NCBI GenBank assembly: GCA_964611355.1
Contig: CAZSYD010000018.1
Span: 1 to 39,868, forward strand
Direction: 5' to 3'
Origin: an uncultured Ignavibacteriales bacterium
GTDB taxonomy: Bacteria; Zixibacteria; MSB-5A5; GN15; JAAZOE01
DNA length: 39,868 nt
The first letter of the stretch is position 1. Each line of letters starts with the position of its first letter. This document shows, one piece after another, positions 3,001 through 12,000 of the stretch. A program made the position numbers.

Positions 3001-6000
3001 GTTTCGGTGTGGCTGTTGCTTTTAATTGCGGTGGTGGTTCTGACCGGAACGTCGTGGCCGCTTATCACCGCGTTTTTTGGCAGTCAGGGCGCAGCCGATA
3101 GGGATATGTACACCCGGCTGATTTTCCCCCTTGCGATAGTCATCTGTCTTTTCCTCGGCTTTTCGCCGTTTATGCTCTGGAGGGGAGGCGAGTCGGGACG
3201 GCTGATAAAGAAAGCGGTTATACCAATTATAGCGGCTTTGGCGATTACAATAGTCTCCGTATTAATGGGAGTAAAGTCCTTTTCCTACTTGCTTTTTATT
3301 TTCTCGGCCGCTTTCGCGTTTTTCTCTAACATACTGACGCTTGCGAGATACCTCCCCGATAGAATAAAACTGTCCGGACCCCAGGTAGCACATCTCGGAT
3401 TGGCCATGATGCTTATCGGCATACTCGTTTCTTCGGCCTATTCCACCAGTCGTATGTTGGTGATCGATCATGGCCGTGCCGGTTGGGCGTACGGTTTTGA
3501 GATTACCTATAAGGGAATGACCGGTGAAATTACCACGCCGGATAATGAGATTCTCCTTGATATCAAAGACGGCAACGGCGGGTACGAAGCCCGGCCGAAA
3601 ATGTTCCGGTCTCGCCGAATGGGAGGTTTCATGAAGAAACCGTATATTAAGCGGTATTTGTTTTATGACATCTACCTGGCCCCGGAGCAGTTTATTGACC
3701 TTTCGCCGGAGAACGGGGTGAAAATCGTGCGCGGCGATACTATCCGGCTTGGCGAATTTCATATAACTTTTACGGGTTTCGATCAGGCTGAGCATGATTT
3801 GAATTCATCGATGAAGTTCGCCGCGGTATTGGAAGTGACTAACGGCGCCGGCCGCACGGAAACAATAACGCCGGCCCTTGTCTTTGAGCCGGGTAAGAAT
3901 TTCATTCATTTCGACGTTCCGATAATGAGCGGTTACGATTCGTTTCAGGTTCGGTTGGAGAGGGTTTTTGCCGATGAGGGGGCTATCATGTTGTCAGTTG
4001 AGGGATTAACGCCAAAGTTGCCGACTGACCAGCTTGTTCTGGAAATCTCCAAAAAACCGGCCATGAATCTGCTCTGGGGGGGTGCGATTGTGCTCCTTTT
4101 GGGCGGTTTTCTCTCATTTCGTAACAGGTGGAAAATAAGCCGCACGGGGCCATAGCCGGTAATAAGCCAATTTATATTTACACAAATCAGGAAATAGTCT
4201 CGTCTACAGAGGCAGAAAGAGCAAAAAAAACCATATTTTTGCTTGCCCAAAAGGGCGAAACTATTTATTATTTGTTTTCGTGTTGCGATGACATTGGGAG
4301 GATTAGATAAATGAGAAGAGTTGTTTCGGTTTTGGTTATTATCGGTCTTTTGGCGGTGTTTGGATACAGCGGGTGTGATAAAAACGATGAAAATACCATT
4401 AATTCCCTGCCCAAGCACCATAATGTTTTTCCGGTGTTCCATCTTAAGACCGACAACGGTTATCGGACCTATGGCGTCGATTCCGTTCTGCTTACGGCCG
4501 ATCCGGATATCGGCTGGCTGGATTCGGTCTTTACCGATGTCAATGGATGTATCGCCACTATGGCCGCAGGGACGTACATCACCGATATCGACACCACGAT
4601 TGAAATAGACCCCAACACACAGCTTCCCGACACGACTATCGACACTACTTCCGTTGTCCTTGGTTTTACGCCTTCGCAGGAATATGCTTTCGCCTTCGAA
4701 AGGGAAAATGAATTTACCTGGGTTGATTCGTTTAAGGCCGTGTACGCGGTGACGATTGATTCCACATGGATGCTTATCTCTGCCGAAACGCTGGAAGTAT
4801 CCGTAGTTCGTGATACCGCCAGGGCGCTTAAAACCGTGCTCGATTCGGTAGCCGTTATAGACGATCCGGACGATACTATTGGCAATCAGCCCGATTCGAT
4901 CTACGATCTGGAACTCCTGTATGGTTACTGGTTTGACACTGCCTTCACGGTTGTTAACCCTGATGATACTATAGATTTCCCTCCCGATTCAACGGTTGTT
5001 GACACGCAACTCTGGGGATTCTGGAATCGAATAGATTCCTTTTTCCTGGCGACCGATTCATCGGAATGGTGCGATATTGCCATAGATACAATCATTGAAG
5101 GTACCGAAACCACGTACGTGGAGCAGATTGAAATCGTCATAGATACCATGAGGGCGGATCTTAACGGTTATGTTACCTACATCATCGATACGATCTACCA
5201 TTACGCCGACTGCCCCGATTATCCTGATATTCAGGATGCCATATACAACTCTTGCGCATGGAATGACTACGATACTACCATTCACGCCGTTTTCCCCGAT
5301 ACTGCCAAAAGCCTGATCTTTGACGACAGCGTTCTGGTTATCAATCATGTAACAAATGATACCAGCCGGGCCTCTCTATACCTTGATGACGGCCGTGGTA
5401 CTTTAATTCCTTTAGATAGCCTGCAGCTTCAATTGACGATGCCGCCGGAGGAAGTCTATCCGTTCTATGATATGTATATCAAAGACGAGTAATCCGGGCT
5501 ATCCCATCGTTCCTTGATAAAGCTTGCCAAAACCCCGCGAATTCAGCGGGGTTTTTTTATTGACAAATAGTTTATCGCATTTTATGCTATACGAAGATAC
5601 ATTTCGGTCCCAGAGCGGTTAATAGGGAAGACGGTGAAAATCCGTCGCAGCCCCGCTACTGTGAGCGGCTACGAAAGGATCGGCAACCACTCTTTCGGGT
5701 CAACCGAAAGGGGAAGGGATCCCGGTAGGTTTGATGCCGCAAGCCAGGAGACCTGCCGAAACGGAAACCTGTAATTCGACAGCCCTCGAGGGAGGGAAGG
5801 TTGAACCGATCCCGACCCGTCAACATGGCTGCCGGGATTTTTTTGTTATATTTTCCCGGCAGAGCAGGAGTTTGGTTTGTCCCTGCTGCAATATTGTGCC
5901 TGCTTCTGGCCGTTATTTTCCACTGTCCCGCGGCGGCTCAGTCTTCCGCAAAAATCGACGGATATGTTTATGATGACGTTGACGGCCATCCCCTTCCTCA

Positions 6001-9000: not shown

Positions 9001-12000
9001 CCATGAAATCTACCACGACGCGGCCGACCCGCTTCTTGTCGATTCAGGGGCCGCCTCGGTGGCCGTTTACCAGGATTCGACCGCCTTTGTGTTGACTTTT
9101 AACGATATAGTTTCCCGCCACGACGGTTCGGGGGCGGAGATTAACGCTTATAGCCTGGGCGACGGCCCGGTCAATCTTGATTTTAGCTATATCCCCGGCG
9201 ACGCCAACGGCGACTGGAACGTCAATCTGGGCGACGCCGTTTACCTGTTCAACCATATTTTCCATTCCGGCCCGAAACCGGTATTTCCGGCCTGGCGAGC
9301 TGATGCCAACGCCGACGGCAATATCAATATCGGTGATGCAGTTTACCTGGTAAATCATATTTTTAATAATGGCGACAGGCCGAAACTCGGGATGGCGTGG
9401 CTCAGGTAAGGCCGGGGCTTAGCCGCCTCGCGTCATGCACGGTTTATATTCTATGACGCCTTTGGTTGCCGCCCCGGCCGGTTCGGTCGGAGTTATTCTT
9501 TTATAGATGCAAAAAATAATTTGTCGTTGCTGTCCTGAGTGTATAATATGCGTAATGCGGAATTTTCTGGCGATATCAATTCCGGCGTTGCTTCTCATGA
9601 CGTCGCTATTGGCGGCCCAAGATGATAAAATCCCCGGTTTTTCGCCCTACATGGGCTTGTCGGTACCTTATCCGGAAACAATCCCCGAATTGACCGTCGA
9701 ACCTCCCGGGGACCGGCGAATAACCAACGGTTTCCGCACTGCCCGTATCGTCGTTGATGCACAAGGAAAGGTACGCGATTTGGTTTTCTCGGAGGATTCC
9801 GCCTACTGGTTTGAACCTCTCGTAAATAAACGGGAAGAAATACGGTTTGGTTTCTCGGAAGGCAGAAAACTTAAAGATACGTTAAAAGTGCCGGTGCAGT
9901 TGGAATATTACGGTCCGGCTCAAAACAAATCGGTCAGGCTTCATTTCCCCGTATCACAGGATATAGTCTCCAACAAACCGTTATTGGAGGAGTTTTTCGA
10001 TATCAATAATATCAAACCTCCGGCGGTGATCGACCTGCCGCCGGTAAACTGCAAGGTTGACCGTGCGAAAAGGGAGCCGGATTATCTTACCATAACGGCC
10101 CTGGTTTCTCTTGATGAAAACGGAGAACTGCTTGACCTTGCTTATCCCATTCCGGGCCAGGATCAGATGACTCACCGGATACATGTTGCTTTGATAAACG
10201 CCGAATTCGAACCGGCCCGAATCAATGGTCAACCGTTTGCCTGTAATTTCCTTCTGACTTTCCGGATATTCGATAACATCGGATACCCCTTTTCGCCTTT
10301 CCAGCCGCATGATTCTATGCGAACGCCGGTGGTTACGGAAAAATATTTCATGACGCGGTATTTCAATCACCGGGATATATCCGTGCCGGCGTTACCGAGG
10401 AGATTCGCTTCGGGAACGATACTGTCCCCGGAATATGGCCGCCGAGTCCACGGATGGCTGGTAGCTGAGATCGGAATAAATACCGAGGGAAGAGTTAGTT
10501 TTGTCTCAGTGCATCATCGGAAAACCAAACGAGCCAGCGCCGCTCGAGAGGTTCTGATGACGACAACATGGTATCCCGCGGCAGACTGGCGCGGTAAGGC
10601 CAAATTATTCTCAGGCAATGTCCGGTTGGAGTTTAACCGTACCCGAAATGTCGTATATATCCCCGAATGGATCGAAAAATGACGCAAAAATTGCGACTTG
10701 TAAGGCCATGATTTATGGCTACTTACGAGCAGAATAGGCAACTCGTCTGTTTTTACGGATTAATCCTTGGAGGTAATCATCGATTTCGGCGCAAGCGTCG
10801 TAACATACTGTCGATTAATATATTGCGGGCGGAAAGGAAATTCTTCGACGGCATGTTTTTTGTTGCTCTTCGTCGGCAAATAATATATCCGGATTTTGCC
10901 TGGAAGAAAAAGCAGCGCATATCTGTATAAATGATAGATGATGAAGATTCAGCAGTATGTAAATATGACCTCGGCCCTGATCGTGTTTGTGGGTGGAATG
11001 GTGATAGTCTTTTTCTATCCCGGTCATCTGGAGCGTCATTACCGGGTTCTTATCGGAGTGTTTGTATCGTTCTATTTTTTGATTCGTGTGGGGCAGACTG
11101 TGATTGCCGTTCGGAAGAGCCGCCGGAGTAAAAAGGACGGTTTTAAATACTTGATTGATAAGAACGAAGAGAAGATGGATGAACCAAAAATCCCTTGACT
11201 TCAAAAGGTTTTTTTGTATTATGCGCCTTATTGATTTTGAATATATTCGAAAGGTTTTGGCTGGTAACATGATTGAATTTCGTTCCATAGCACGGTCCCT
11301 GGGATTGGCCCTGCTTGCCGTTATGGCTGTTTCACTGCCGGCTTCCGCATATGATTTCAAGCCGGAGATTGTCGATGCCTTGAACCGTAAAGACACCGCC
11401 CAGGTTCTGGCCTTGATCGACTCGGAGTTGAAACTCGATCCCAATTACGCTCCGCTTTACTTATTGAAAGGTCAGATATTTTTCGCGCGGAATCAAACCG
11501 ACGAAGCTCTGGAACAGTTCGAACTGGCCCTGAAAAAGAAATCAAAGTTGTATGAGGCGCTCTATTATAAAGGCCTGGTCATGCTCGAGAAGGACAATCT
11601 GAAAGAGGCCGAAAAGGCGTTCAACAAAGGCGTGAAAAAAGCCAAAATCGATAAAGCGCTTTTCCATAACGGTAAAGGTCTTCTTCACCTCAAGATGGAA
11701 CAATACGACCAGGCCGATGTGGAATTTCGCAAGGCAACTCAGGTTGGTCCGGACCGGGCTGAATTTCACGCCAACCTTGGCGACGCCAACTATTTTTCGG
11801 AAGTTTACGCCCTGGCGATCAGCGAATACAATAAAGTAATCGAGATGGATACAACCAATCTCGATATATACTTCAGGCTTGCGCGCGCCTATGTGGCCCA
11901 GGGTCAGTACAACGAGGCTCTGAGTCAGCTAAGTATTGTGCTGACCCGCGACAGTGCCTATGGGCAGGCATGGAAAGAAGCCGGAAGACTTTATACCATG

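Follow-up and report, generated by a model that had tools for sequence, protein, structure and literature searches.

Organization of the locus

The window, a 39,868-nt stretch of a contig from an uncultured Zixibacterium, carries a cobalamin riboswitch followed by genes for a TonB-dependent transporter (g01080) and a secreted propeller protein ending in a dockerin (g01081) (Table 1). The riboswitch is the only Rfam match at gathering score within the window, and no second cobalamin riboswitch occurs in the 2.57-Mb assembly, which is 96% complete. Its first base is the last base of a sigma-70-like promoter match; the region holds nine such sites against a mean of 8.3 in shuffled sequences, which is no excess, and the site is a consensus match only. 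Further upstream, a terminator-like hairpin probably closes the preceding lipoprotein gene and sets the riboswitch unit apart from it, while a weaker hairpin 3′ of g01081 is a possible operon end. The Shine-Dalgarno-like GGAGG of g01080 is enclosed by a short self-complementary stretch, CCCTCGAGGG (5784-5793), through which this gene may be regulated.

Table 1. Features of the riboswitch-transporter-propeller unit
Feature	Position	Strand	Evidence or remarks
Intrinsic-terminator-like hairpin	5529..5555	+	10-bp stem, 6 G-C pairs, T-run
Sigma-70-like promoter match	5560..5588	+	TTGACA, 17-nt spacer, TATGCT; 10/12 consensus
Cobalamin riboswitch aptamer, RF00174	5588..5774	+	107.2 bits, E 4.5e-26, full model 1-189
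GGAGG Shine-Dalgarno-like stretch	5791..5803	+	5 nt 5′ of g01080 TTG start; direct sequence reading
g01080, BtuB-like TonB-dependent transporter	5801..8143	+	ORF, 780 aa, TTG start
g01080 signal peptide, then N-terminal domain, Plug, beta-barrel	within 5801..8143	+	
g01080 CarboxypepD_reg(-like) domain	aa 52-128	+	Domain match
g01080 Plug domain	aa 150-251	+	Domain match
g01081	8189..9409	+	ORF, 406 aa
g01081 signal peptide (aa 1-21), signal-peptidase-I type, without lipobox	8189..8251	+	
g01081 seven-bladed YVTN-type beta-propeller (aa 22-335), BtuG-related	8252..9193	+	AF2, Foldseek, VIA, hhalign
g01081 type-I dockerin (aa 336-391)	9194..9361	+	Pfam PF00404 Dockerin_1, 9.9e-8
Weak terminator-like hairpin	9474..9490	+	7 bp, 6 G-C pairs, poor T-run; pattern match only

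The top NCBIfam model for g01080 is TonB-B12. A profile built from 31 orthologues of the transporter found BtuB1 of Bacteroides thetaiotaomicron as its top solved match (1e-63, residues 129-775), followed by E. coli BtuB (1e-47), BtuB2 (5e-47) and BtuB3 (2e-40); the top ten solved sequences were all BtuBs, and CirA and FepA scored lower. At the level of sequence profiles, g01080 is shown to be BtuB-like.

The first cysteine of g01081 is residue 59, and the protein therefore lacks a lipobox; its signal ends in V-T-A followed by A-D-P, and both this A-x-A/D-P pattern and the missing lipobox are common to 38 aligned family members. The AF2 model made from 38 sequences (mean pLDDT 93.0, pTM 0.89) forms a seven-bladed propeller over residues 22-335. 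Dockerin_1 is the sole Pfam match above its cut-off (32.5 bits vs 22.9), the dockerin sequence can be read as two calcium-loop repeats (D338/N340/D342/D349 and D372/N374/D376/D383), of which D338, D349 and D383 are invariant in the 38 sequences, and the family profile reaches solved dockerins at 4e-4 to 9e-3. No outer-membrane export signal could be recognized in g01081 among its domain matches or in the family alignment. The riboswitch, the BtuB-like transporter, the plain signal peptide, the dockerin as only Pfam match and the seven-bladed fold had all been described in the genome-wide survey's note, and each held up here.

Relationship of the propeller to BtuG

Published statements describe BtuG as exclusive to Bacteroidetes, as the note had said. 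It had also named BtuG as the closest fold to g01081 by a clear margin, which does not hold. In a Foldseek search of the PDB, BtuG1/2/3 entries occupied ranks 1-13, 16 and 17, with E values between 9.8e-20 and 3.6e-17, identities of 18-20% and, apart from the long chain 8blw_B, target TM-scores of 0.75-0.80, but the archaeal S-layer YVTN propeller 1l0q_A tied with them at rank 15 (E 1.1e-17), and the sequence profile of the propeller family placed 1l0q_A first (4.1e-28 vs 1.5e-13 for the top BtuG chain). Fold and sequence do not separate BtuG from generic YVTN propellers.

The relationship is better supported by profile-profile comparison than by fold likeness. Aligned by hhalign, 31 family members matched 22 Bacteroidota DUF5074 proteins with a probability of 100% and E 2.6e-41 over 307 columns; the DUF5074 proteins themselves are, judging from the best solved match of the top scorer from 81 sampled genomes (BtuG2, 8bmx_D, 4.4e-42), the BtuG family. 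The family profile aligned with them in one collinear stretch (37-125 bits), whereas its score against 1l0q was the sum of four repeat-level stretches, the top one of 48.5 bits. These profile alignments show the propeller to be homologous to the BtuG/DUF5074 family, albeit divergent: the Pfam DUF5074 model does not match g01081 even at E <= 1, matches 3 of the 31 family members at that level (best E 1e-4), and has its cut-off passed by 13 of 44 scanned relatives.

Conservation of the gene pair and the riboswitch

The note had described orthologues as widespread in Zixibacteria, and this could be widened to 101 of 151 sampled genomes and 17 of 19 families. We surveyed the context of 80 loci, 38 from close relatives and 42 from distant ones in other phyla. 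The transporter gene lies directly 5′ of the propeller gene in 36 of the 38 close loci, in keeping with the arrangement noted earlier, the two exceptions being due to masking in one case and to the start of the contig in the other; 32 of the distant loci have it no more than 350 nt away, and a further three 0.9-1.4 kb away. Riboswitches were detected by an nhmmer profile, which gave the same result as Rfam at 14 calibration loci (nine with and five without a riboswitch), in 29/29 testable close loci (contig ends cut the other nine) and in 25/36 testable distant loci, that is, in 54 of 65 overall. Within the available sequence none was found in the remaining 11 distant loci, so the wider family may not be B12-specific throughout; these loci are mostly Cloacimonadota-labelled, with weaker transporter matches. 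At four loci the riboswitch stands immediately ahead of the propeller gene without an intervening transporter gene (the upstream sequence available at L071, one of the four, is only 404 nt long), an order that would connect the propeller as such with B12 status. A BtuR/CobO adenosyltransferase gene separates the riboswitch from the transporter gene at four loci. Pairing and riboswitch linkage are thus conserved across phyla, and this context is the strongest line of evidence.

A wider subfamily, which we label by its conserved H-V-V-C-T-G-D/N-Y motif, occurs in WOR-3, Fidelibacterota, Latescibacterota, Calditrichota, KSB1, LCP-89, Acidobacteriota, Cloacimonadota and Ignavibacteria-labelled genomes. 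Its members share the propeller (28-38% identity), the position behind a g01080-like transporter and, in most loci, the riboswitch, but have a type IX secretion tail or a lipobox in place of the dockerin of g01081. Tail-type domains of the type IX system were found in 27 of the 42 distant relatives, and one subfamily member ends in an IPTL-CTERM tail. In the tree, the subfamily forms one side of a branch separating it from 25 Bacteroidota DUF5074 proteins (99% SH-aLRT), and dockerin forms cluster mainly in a single clade of 37 rows (100% support).

Predicted complex and putative corrinoid pocket

The best control of the transporter-propeller complex prediction scored 0.00, and the pair itself 0.81 (median of three runs), a mark that 116 of 157 solved complexes attain but only 2 of 215 mismatched pairs. 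The three runs had at least 87% of contacts in common, with partner pLDDT of 89 or more. The propeller touches the barrel in segments spaced by some 50 residues, the first being 313-325 and the last 760-761, and makes no contact with the plug; by the topology of TonB-dependent transporters, these segments would be the extracellular loops. Conservation at the predicted interface (0.67) does not exceed that of the remaining propeller (0.64).

Corrin contacts of BtuG2, as listed in section 3.4 of PMC13616437, were assigned counterparts in g01081 by sequence alignment. Like residues align with three of them (Q93 with N62, Q219 with N193, Y239 with Y213), N193 being Asn in 80/80 relatives, and polar residues align with two more (N107 with S76, S131 with N102); the polar residues at the positions of the corrin-amide ligands rank with the most strongly conserved ones of the family. 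E55 and Y316 are replaced by T31 and A288, F58, which stacks on DMB, falls within a five-residue deletion, and Y335 is deleted. Alignment of the W194/S195/Y196 loop is ambiguous because of a seven-residue insertion in g01081, rich in aromatics. The pocket is only partially conserved.

Comparison with known systems

The reference complexes are BtuB1G1, BtuB2G2 and BtuB3G3 of B. thetaiotaomicron (PDB 8BLW, 8BMX, 8P97), and the prediction for g01080 and g01081 may echo them. The order of riboswitch, TonB-dependent B12 transporter and seven-bladed propeller gene directly behind it is the same, the propellers are homologous, the closest solved transporter is BtuB1, and g01081 is likewise predicted to cap the extracellular loops. 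The present pair differs in its zixibacterial host, in the failure of Pfam DUF5074 to recognize the propeller, in the shorter E55/F58 loop and longer, aromatic-rich W194-Y196 loop, and in the plain signal peptide and C-terminal dockerin instead of a lipobox.

BtuK1 of B. thetaiotaomicron (PDB 9S6C) is a second B12-binding propeller lipoprotein from a riboswitch-controlled locus, in which a PKD domain precedes a seven-bladed propeller that binds CNCbl, according to PMC13616437. The BtuK gene, unlike g01081, does not immediately follow that of BtuB. 9S6C is absent among the solved matches of our family profile at E <= 0.01, whereas Bacteroidota DUF5074 proteins reach it at 1e-7 to 4e-10. An N-terminal Ig-like domain ahead of the propeller is also seen in two relatives, L059 and L067.

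Secreted dockerin proteins in an FCB-group bacterium have a parallel in the cloacimonadotal Ca. Stygibacter, for which PMC8542988 proposes cellulosome-like cohesin-dockerin display on a cohesin scaffold that a conserved C-terminal domain attaches to the cell's own surface; the cargo there consists of polymer-degrading glycoside hydrolases and peptidases, as opposed to a vitamin-transporter accessory protein here.

Genomic context

Two ORFs with B12-binding domains are present in the assembly, and neither CbiC nor CobS was found in it at 96% completeness, which suggests that the organism uses B12 without making it. No BtuF-type (Peripla_BP_2) periplasmic binding protein was found in the same assembly; a candidate inner-membrane carrier is an ECF S-component-like ORF elsewhere in the genome, 29-34% identical to those that three relatives encode within riboswitch operons. 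Dockerin matches number 32 in the genome and cohesin matches seven, five of the latter above cut-off. Type IX tail-type domains send proteins to the cell surface; four of the six cohesin ORFs end in such domains, which narrows the choice of a cohesin partner for g01081, and the system is represented by a SprA homologue and 34 tail matches. We know of no route by which a protein with a Sec signal and a dockerin crosses a diderm outer membrane.

Interpretation

We propose, with a probability of about 0.65 for the proposal as a whole, that the two genes form a B12-repressed scavenging operon. At low levels of intracellular cobalamin, the riboswitch would permit expression of a BtuB-type outer-membrane transporter and of a secreted propeller, a divergent relative of the BtuG lid, one face of which is predicted to rest on the extracellular loops. 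Corrinoid would be captured by a ring of polar residues on the transporter-facing side and passed to the barrel for TonB-driven import. In place of BtuG's lipid anchor, the calcium-type dockerin would plug into cohesin modules of surface-fixed scaffold proteins exported by the type IX system.

The propeller could instead be a structural cap or gate of the transporter that binds no corrinoid itself; it might shield the barrel against phages or colicins, or recognize a protein carrying corrinoid, not the cofactor in free form. The loss of E55, F58, Y316 and Y335, the distant loci without a riboswitch, and BtuK2, a Bacteroides propeller from a B12 locus that bound no cobamide from solution according to PMC13616437, would all fit such a role, which we nevertheless regard as unlikely in view of the strongly conserved polar residues, above all N193, and of the riboswitches directly ahead of propeller genes.

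It is more doubtful still that g01081 is a periplasmic shuttle, taking B12 from the transporter in place of BtuF, with its dockerin-like module docking to a periplasmic or inner-membrane partner. While the lack of a recognizable export signal and of a BtuF-type protein speaks for this arrangement, type IX tail-type domains are found both in relatives encoded at the equivalent position and in cohesin proteins of this genome, the predicted contacts involve the barrel's loop side, and the S-component-like ORF offers an inner-membrane carrier. A generic surface-layer-type YVTN propeller lying behind the transporter incidentally, like 1L0Q of Methanosarcina mazei, which has no link to B12 or transporters, is hardly credible given the piecemeal 1l0q alignment and the pairing and riboswitch retained in most loci.

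The scavenging pair is thus supported by profile homology, synteny, riboswitch linkage and complex prediction. As to the note's picture of this Zixibacterium, the BtuB-BtuG-like pair with its dockerin stands, although the pair is not peculiar to the organism: the dockerin arrangement is one anchor variant of a family that spans many FCB-group and other candidate phyla and whose members mostly carry type IX secretion tails or lipoboxes. BtuB-BtuG-like pairs occur outside Bacteroidota as well, in many phyla that are little known, with interchangeable surface anchors.

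Organization of the locus

The gene g01081, which codes for a propeller-dockerin protein, lies directly 3′ of the btuB-like gene g01080 and under a cobalamin riboswitch, in a BtuG-like gene order. The riboswitch, placed ahead of g01080 on the same strand by the genome-wide survey's note, was recovered with the covariance model over its full length: its score exceeds the gathering score of 31.5 bits, it spans model positions 1–189, the full-length aptamer, and its 3′ end lies 26 nt before the TTG start codon. It is the sole Rfam match in the window and, in an assembly of 2.57 Mb and 96% completeness, the sole cobalamin riboswitch.

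Features of the transporter-propeller locus and of its surroundings in the window
Feature	Position	Strand	Remarks
Second dockerin match	141–293	-	contig edge; open frame of 61 aa
Asp/Thr-rich lipoprotein	4311–5492	+	393 aa; lipobox Y-S-G-C; no family match
Terminator-like hairpin, strong	5529–5555	+	closes upstream lipoprotein gene
Promoter-like match	5560–5588	+	abuts riboswitch
Cobalamin riboswitch RF00174	5588–5774	+	107.2 bits, E 4.5e-26
g01080	5801–8143	+	780 aa; TTG start; GGAGG 5 nt before TTG
g01081	8189–9409	+	406 aa; 45-nt gap after g01080
Terminator-like hairpin, weak	9474–9490	+	after g01081
391-aa ORF	9507–10682	+	N-terminal hydrophobic stretch; no Pfam or NCBIfam match
TPR protein, then ExbB, ExbD, ExbD, gap, TonB_C	11155–18038	+	1.7–8.6 kb downstream, on the same strand
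BACON_2-domain protein	24786–27227	+	813 aa
Two Meth_synt_1/2 genes, then homocysteine S-methyltransferase fused to MTHFR	34464–38268	+	Meth_synt_1/2 genes cobalamin-independent methionine synthase-like; no riboswitch ahead

The lipoprotein gene just upstream, separated from the riboswitch by the strong terminator, and the ORF directly after g01081 were considered as members of the unit and excluded; since homologues of the 391-aa ORF, like those of the lipoprotein, occur in just four of 80 related loci, it probably lies outside the conserved unit. The ExbB/ExbD/ExbD/TonB_C set is a candidate energiser for g01080, and its position beside the transporter-propeller pair is not kept in relatives.

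Relationship to BtuB and BtuG

The N-terminus of g01080 carries a CarboxypepD_reg-like domain, followed by Plug (6.3e-25). Searching solved sequences with a profile of 31 orthologues, we found BtuBs in all ten top-scoring places, with Bacteroides thetaiotaomicron BtuB1 at 1e-63 (residues 129–775), E. coli BtuB at about 1e-47, BtuB2 at 5e-47 and BtuB3 at 2e-40, followed by CirA (1e-39) and FepA, so that BtuBs are the nearest characterised relatives of its plug and β-barrel, as the BtuB-like label of the survey's note had implied. The best-scoring NCBIfam model for TonB-dependent transporters (TBDTs) is likewise TIGR01779 (TonB-B12), at 146.4 bits and below its equivalog cut-off of 599.7, and NF007926 also stays below its equivalog cut-off (103.7 versus 836 bits).

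The AF2 model of g01081, built from 38 sequences, is a seven-bladed propeller (mean pLDDT 93.0, pTM 0.89) predicted to superpose on solved BtuG, in agreement with the fold proposed earlier. Its signal is of the signal-peptidase-I type, with an A-x-A cleavage pattern in 38 family members, and the lipobox cysteine is indeed missing, the first Cys being residue 59. The sole Pfam match above cut-off is Dockerin_1 at 336–391.

The Pfam family DUF5074 (PF16819, gathering score 27.2 bits) is found in 27 of 81 genomes sampled from the phylum that holds the related locus L060. The nearest solved relative of the best-scoring DUF5074 protein from these genomes is BtuG2 (8bmx_D, 4.4e-42), and the alignment of the two reproduces the published numbering of C32, E55, F58, Q93, W194, Q219, Y239, W272, Y316 and Y335; DUF5074 corresponds to the BtuG family. 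No DUF5074 match was obtained on g01081 at E ≤ 1; at this threshold only 3 of 31 members of its family match, with a best E value of 1e-4, and 13 of 44 scanned relatives exceed the DUF5074 cut-off. Comparison of whole profiles is more telling: hhalign joins the 31 family members to 22 Bacteroidota DUF5074 proteins with 100% probability (E 2.6e-41, 307 columns), and the family profile matches Bacteroidota DUF5074 proteins in one collinear stretch of 37–125 bits. By contrast, its score against 1l0q, an archaeal YVTN propeller from the S-layer of Methanosarcina mazei, is the sum of four repeat-level stretches, the best of them reaching 48.5 bits. Sequence profiles are thus the better evidence for the BtuG relationship, which is clear at the profile level. 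With DUF5074 unmatched by g01081 itself and matched by so few of its family, g01081 belongs to a divergent sister group of BtuG and is a non-member by Pfam's rule.

The B12 pocket

According to a 2026 review (PMC13616437), the corrin amides in the BtuG2-AdoCbl complex are hydrogen-bonded by S131, N107, E55, Q93, S195, Q219, Y196 and Y239, while Y316 and Y335 contact the adenosyl group and F58 stacks against DMB; a 2023 paper names W194 and W272. These residues were mapped onto g01081 from sequence only, through the BtuG2/L088 alignment, the hhalign alignment and a direct profile alignment to BtuG3. Loops and blades 5–7 are treated as unreliable in a global MAFFT alignment of 106 propellers, whose loop placements conflict with the HMM and hhalign alignments (e.g., BtuG2 W194 against T159).

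Counterparts of BtuG2 ligand-pocket residues in g01081
BtuG2	g01081	Status	Remarks
Q93	N62	like counterpart	Asn in 70/80 relatives
Q219	N193	like counterpart	Asn in 80/80 relatives
Y239	Y213	like counterpart	nearly invariant
N107	S76	polar counterpart	Ser invariant
S131	N102	polar counterpart	beside gap
E55	T31	not conserved
F58	none		within 5-residue deletion
Y316	A288	not conserved
Y335	none	deleted
W272	none		BtuG3 already has Ala
W194, S195, Y196		ambiguous	g01081 loop 7 residues longer, aromatic-rich (Y161, F163, W166, W168)

Given the counterparts of Q93, Q219, Y239, N107 and S131, the polar ring around the corrin looks partly kept, and the contacts to the nucleotide loop and to the upper ligand are apparently lost; the alignment at S195/Y196 is ambiguous because of the 7-residue insertion.

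Predicted complex of transporter and propeller

When residues 140–780 of g01080 and 22–335 of g01081 were modelled together, with a 31-row alignment for each, the complex scored 0.81 (median of three runs at 0.83, 0.81 and 0.75), and the best of three controls scored 0.00. Among solved complexes 116 of 157 attain the pass mark, compared with 2 of 215 mismatched pairs; these counts hold just roughly because our own alignments were used. The runs have at least 87% of contacts in common, with partner pLDDT of at least 89. All seven blades of the propeller are in contact, through residues that include N30, E34, D56, T78, E80, Q82, N102, Y213 and W258, and on the barrel the contacts fall at 313–325, 369–373, 420–424, 467–471, 573–575, 622–628, 672–675, 713–719 and 760–761, at a spacing of about 50 residues, with none in the plug. 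Counting back from a periplasmic C-terminus along a 22-strand barrel, as TBDT topology would have it, these segments are predicted to be extracellular loops.

A lid-like docking of the propeller is one way to read this result; the pass may also reflect likeness or memory, since BtuBG complexes have already been solved. Conservation at the predicted interface is no higher than elsewhere (0.67 versus 0.64 for the rest of the propeller), and no conserved aromatic tip analogous to that of BtuB EL8 was found in loop 622–628, where Tyr625 occurs in only 12 of 31 sequences.

Spread, genomic context and anchors of related propellers

The orthologues reported earlier from several Zixibacteria families proved more widespread, being present in 101 of 151 sampled genomes and 17 of 19 families. 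Beyond these, a profile search of 1.84 billion representatives gave 465 clusters at E ≤ 1e-30, and architectures were read from the best 150. Three layouts recur among them, each with a propeller: a signal peptide and a dockerin-like tail (about 400 aa), a signal peptide with a tail for type IX secretion (about 435 aa; WOR-3 and Fidelibacterota are among the named sources), and a lipobox with the propeller alone (about 340 aa), one such protein from Latescibacterota passing DUF5074 with 41 bits. A single protein has an IPTL-CTERM tail.

When one genome per species was scanned with a nine-sequence alignment, 158 places were confirmed, and the 80 best were retained. Group A (L008–L045) comprises 38 loci, 37–61% identical and of the dockerin type, Dockerin_1 being matched by 23 of 31 aligned members. 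Group B (L046–L087) comprises 42 loci, 28–38% identical, in records whose titles include Acidobacteriota, Calditrichaeota/Caldithrix, KSB1, LCP-89, Cloacimonadota, Ignavibacteria and three Zixibacteria. In many “binchicken” records the organism label is probably unreliable, and these labels were not used for naming phyla: some records are titled “uncultured Ignavibacteriales” or “Deferribacteres” although their loci share 45–60% identity with the Zixibacteria protein. Among the 42 group B proteins, 27 carry type IX tail-type domains (Por_Secre_tail, FlgD_ig or CHU_C); the group also includes one dockerin protein (L049), five lipobox proteins that end with the propeller, and two lipoproteins with an Ig-like domain ahead of it. 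The latter two (L059, L067) carry an N-terminal Big_7 domain, have no adjoining transporter or riboswitch, and are reminiscent in layout of BtuK with its PKD domain and propeller.

For 106 propeller domains we computed a quick maximum-likelihood tree (LG+G4, with SH-aLRT as the only support measure), rooted on 25 Bacteroidota DUF5074 rows. All 81 rows of the g01081 subfamily fall on one side of a branch with 99% support, and 37 of the dockerin rows form one clade (100%). With this assumed rooting, and with several long outgroup branches, the three anchor states require at least six changes, and the dockerin rows at most two.

For the riboswitch search in the 80 loci we used an nhmmer profile from seven Rfam-confirmed aptamers, which agreed with Rfam at 14 of 14 loci (nine positive, five negative). 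In group A the propeller gene directly follows a g01080 homologue on the same strand at 36 of 38 loci, which upholds the gene order described before; the two exceptions are a masked stretch and a contig starting at the gene. All 29 testable group A loci have the riboswitch, the other nine loci being cut by contig ends. At L020 the upstream transporter ORF is only 408 aa long, with the riboswitch 1.2 kb ahead of it, and this gene may be split or frameshifted in the assembly. Of the 42 group B loci, 32 have the transporter no more than 350 nt away, three more have it at 0.9–1.4 kb, and five testable ones lack it; a riboswitch occurs at 25 of the 36 loci that could be tested for one.

The 11 riboswitch-negative group B loci are mostly labelled Cloacimonadota, have weaker transporter matches and belong to the earliest-splitting clade in the tree. 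Eight loci of this mostly Cloacimonadota-labelled clade (L058, L069, L072, L074, L076, L081, L086, L087; L072 is titled Armatimonadota) keep the transporter-propeller pair; no riboswitch was found in the sequence available for seven of them, and at L081 the upstream sequence is too short. Their transporters score 83–182 bits, and this clade may have another substrate or a different regulation. Elsewhere the units are tied to corrinoid by two kinds of arrangement. At L047, L054, L071 and L078 the propeller gene comes straight after the riboswitch, without an intervening transporter gene (L071 has only 404 nt upstream), and these may be stand-alone B12-regulated propellers. The other tie is provided by genes lying between riboswitch and transporter, namely a BtuR/CobO corrinoid adenosyltransferase gene (about 220 bits) in four relatives with type IX tails (L046, L048, L053, L061), or a gene for an ECF S-component-like membrane protein (L050, L055, L079, L085). 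The L079 protein of this kind is fused to a second TonB-dependent barrel, and at L050, L055 and L082 the ECF S-component-like gene is followed by ORFs of 600–670 aa without family matches.

An ECF S-component-like ORF is also present in the genome under study (contig C31, 6449–6973, minus strand), 29–34% identical to those in the riboswitch operons of three relatives, and is by sequence a candidate inner-membrane carrier. The assembly holds two ORFs with B12-binding domains; CbiC, CobS and a BtuF-type binding protein were not found in it, which at 96% completeness does not prove their absence. Genomic data mark many Zixibacteria as probable corrinoid scavengers.

Dockerin, cohesins and export

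The C-terminal type-I dockerin of g01081, already recognized in the survey, scores 32.5 bits against a PF00404 cut-off of 22.9, and both of its repeats have the D-x-N-x-D...D pattern, with both calcium loops intact. The genome yields 32 dockerin matches and seven cohesin matches (five above cut-off), the latter in six ORFs whose products are candidate partners of this dockerin. Four of these ORFs have type IX tail-type domains at their ends, and a fifth, with a weak match, has a lipobox. The sixth, a 717-aa protein (contig C6, 45666–47819), combines a cohesin near its N-terminus with a C-terminal dockerin in an adaptor-scaffoldin-like layout, and several other ORFs combine a dockerin with a type IX tail (e.g., on contigs C7 and C38). 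A SprA homologue (91 bits), 34 type IX tail matches and secretin homologues are present as well. Type IX secretion moves folded proteins, so it is conceivable, if speculative, that g01081 leaves the periplasm already docked to a type IX-exported cohesin scaffold. One paper proposes a comparable scaffold for a Cloacimonadota lineage (PMC8542988).

Implications

The restriction of BtuG to Bacteroidetes is indeed what has been published: Wexler 2018 describes its homologues as exclusive to that phylum, a 2024 preprint repeats the statement, and Price 2023 places virtually all conserved transporter-lid pairs in Bacteroidota. The literature ties this restriction of BtuG and of lipoprotein-capped TBDTs to the surface-lipoprotein export of Bacteroidetes. 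A preprint on soil corrinoids uses BtuG just as a reagent. In the searched library nothing joined BtuG, or Zixibacteria, with dockerins, and supplementary tables might list distant homologues; BtuG with type IX secretion gave a sole match, on the BAM complex, and papers that mention DUF5074 appeared, by their listing, unrelated to B12.

Judging from sequence, we appear to be dealing with a BtuB-BtuG-type unit outside Bacteroidota, in which a sister subfamily of BtuG has a remodelled pocket and is predicted to be anchored at the surface by a dockerin in most Zixibacteria and by a type IX tail or lipid in other lineages. Within this locus and the best 80 of 158 relatives, the riboswitch-transporter-propeller unit is not confined to Zixibacteria, since genomes bearing the labels of at least six further phyla have it too. 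Outside Bacteroidetes the propeller is predicted to be tethered in at least three ways other than theirs, which uncouples the lid as a principle from lipid anchoring. As candidates for B12 binding, the propellers come from uncultured lineages of sediment and soil, and the data suggest that g01081 may be the first non-degradative cargo of a cohesin-dockerin system in a diderm.

A broader reading, to which we would give roughly one chance in four, is that the B12 lid has become, through its dockerin, a module that can be detached and shared, and that lid-capped TBDTs represent an older, FCB-wide design in which anchors have been swapped. If so, the capping of such transporters by a lid would not have been invented by Bacteroidota in connection with their export of surface lipoproteins, and the anchor (lipid, type IX tail, dockerin or IPTL-CTERM) would have been exchanged repeatedly; close to the transporter, cohesin scaffolds that type IX secretion has attached to the surface would then keep a stock of propellers that capture B12, as a “corrinoid cellulosome”.
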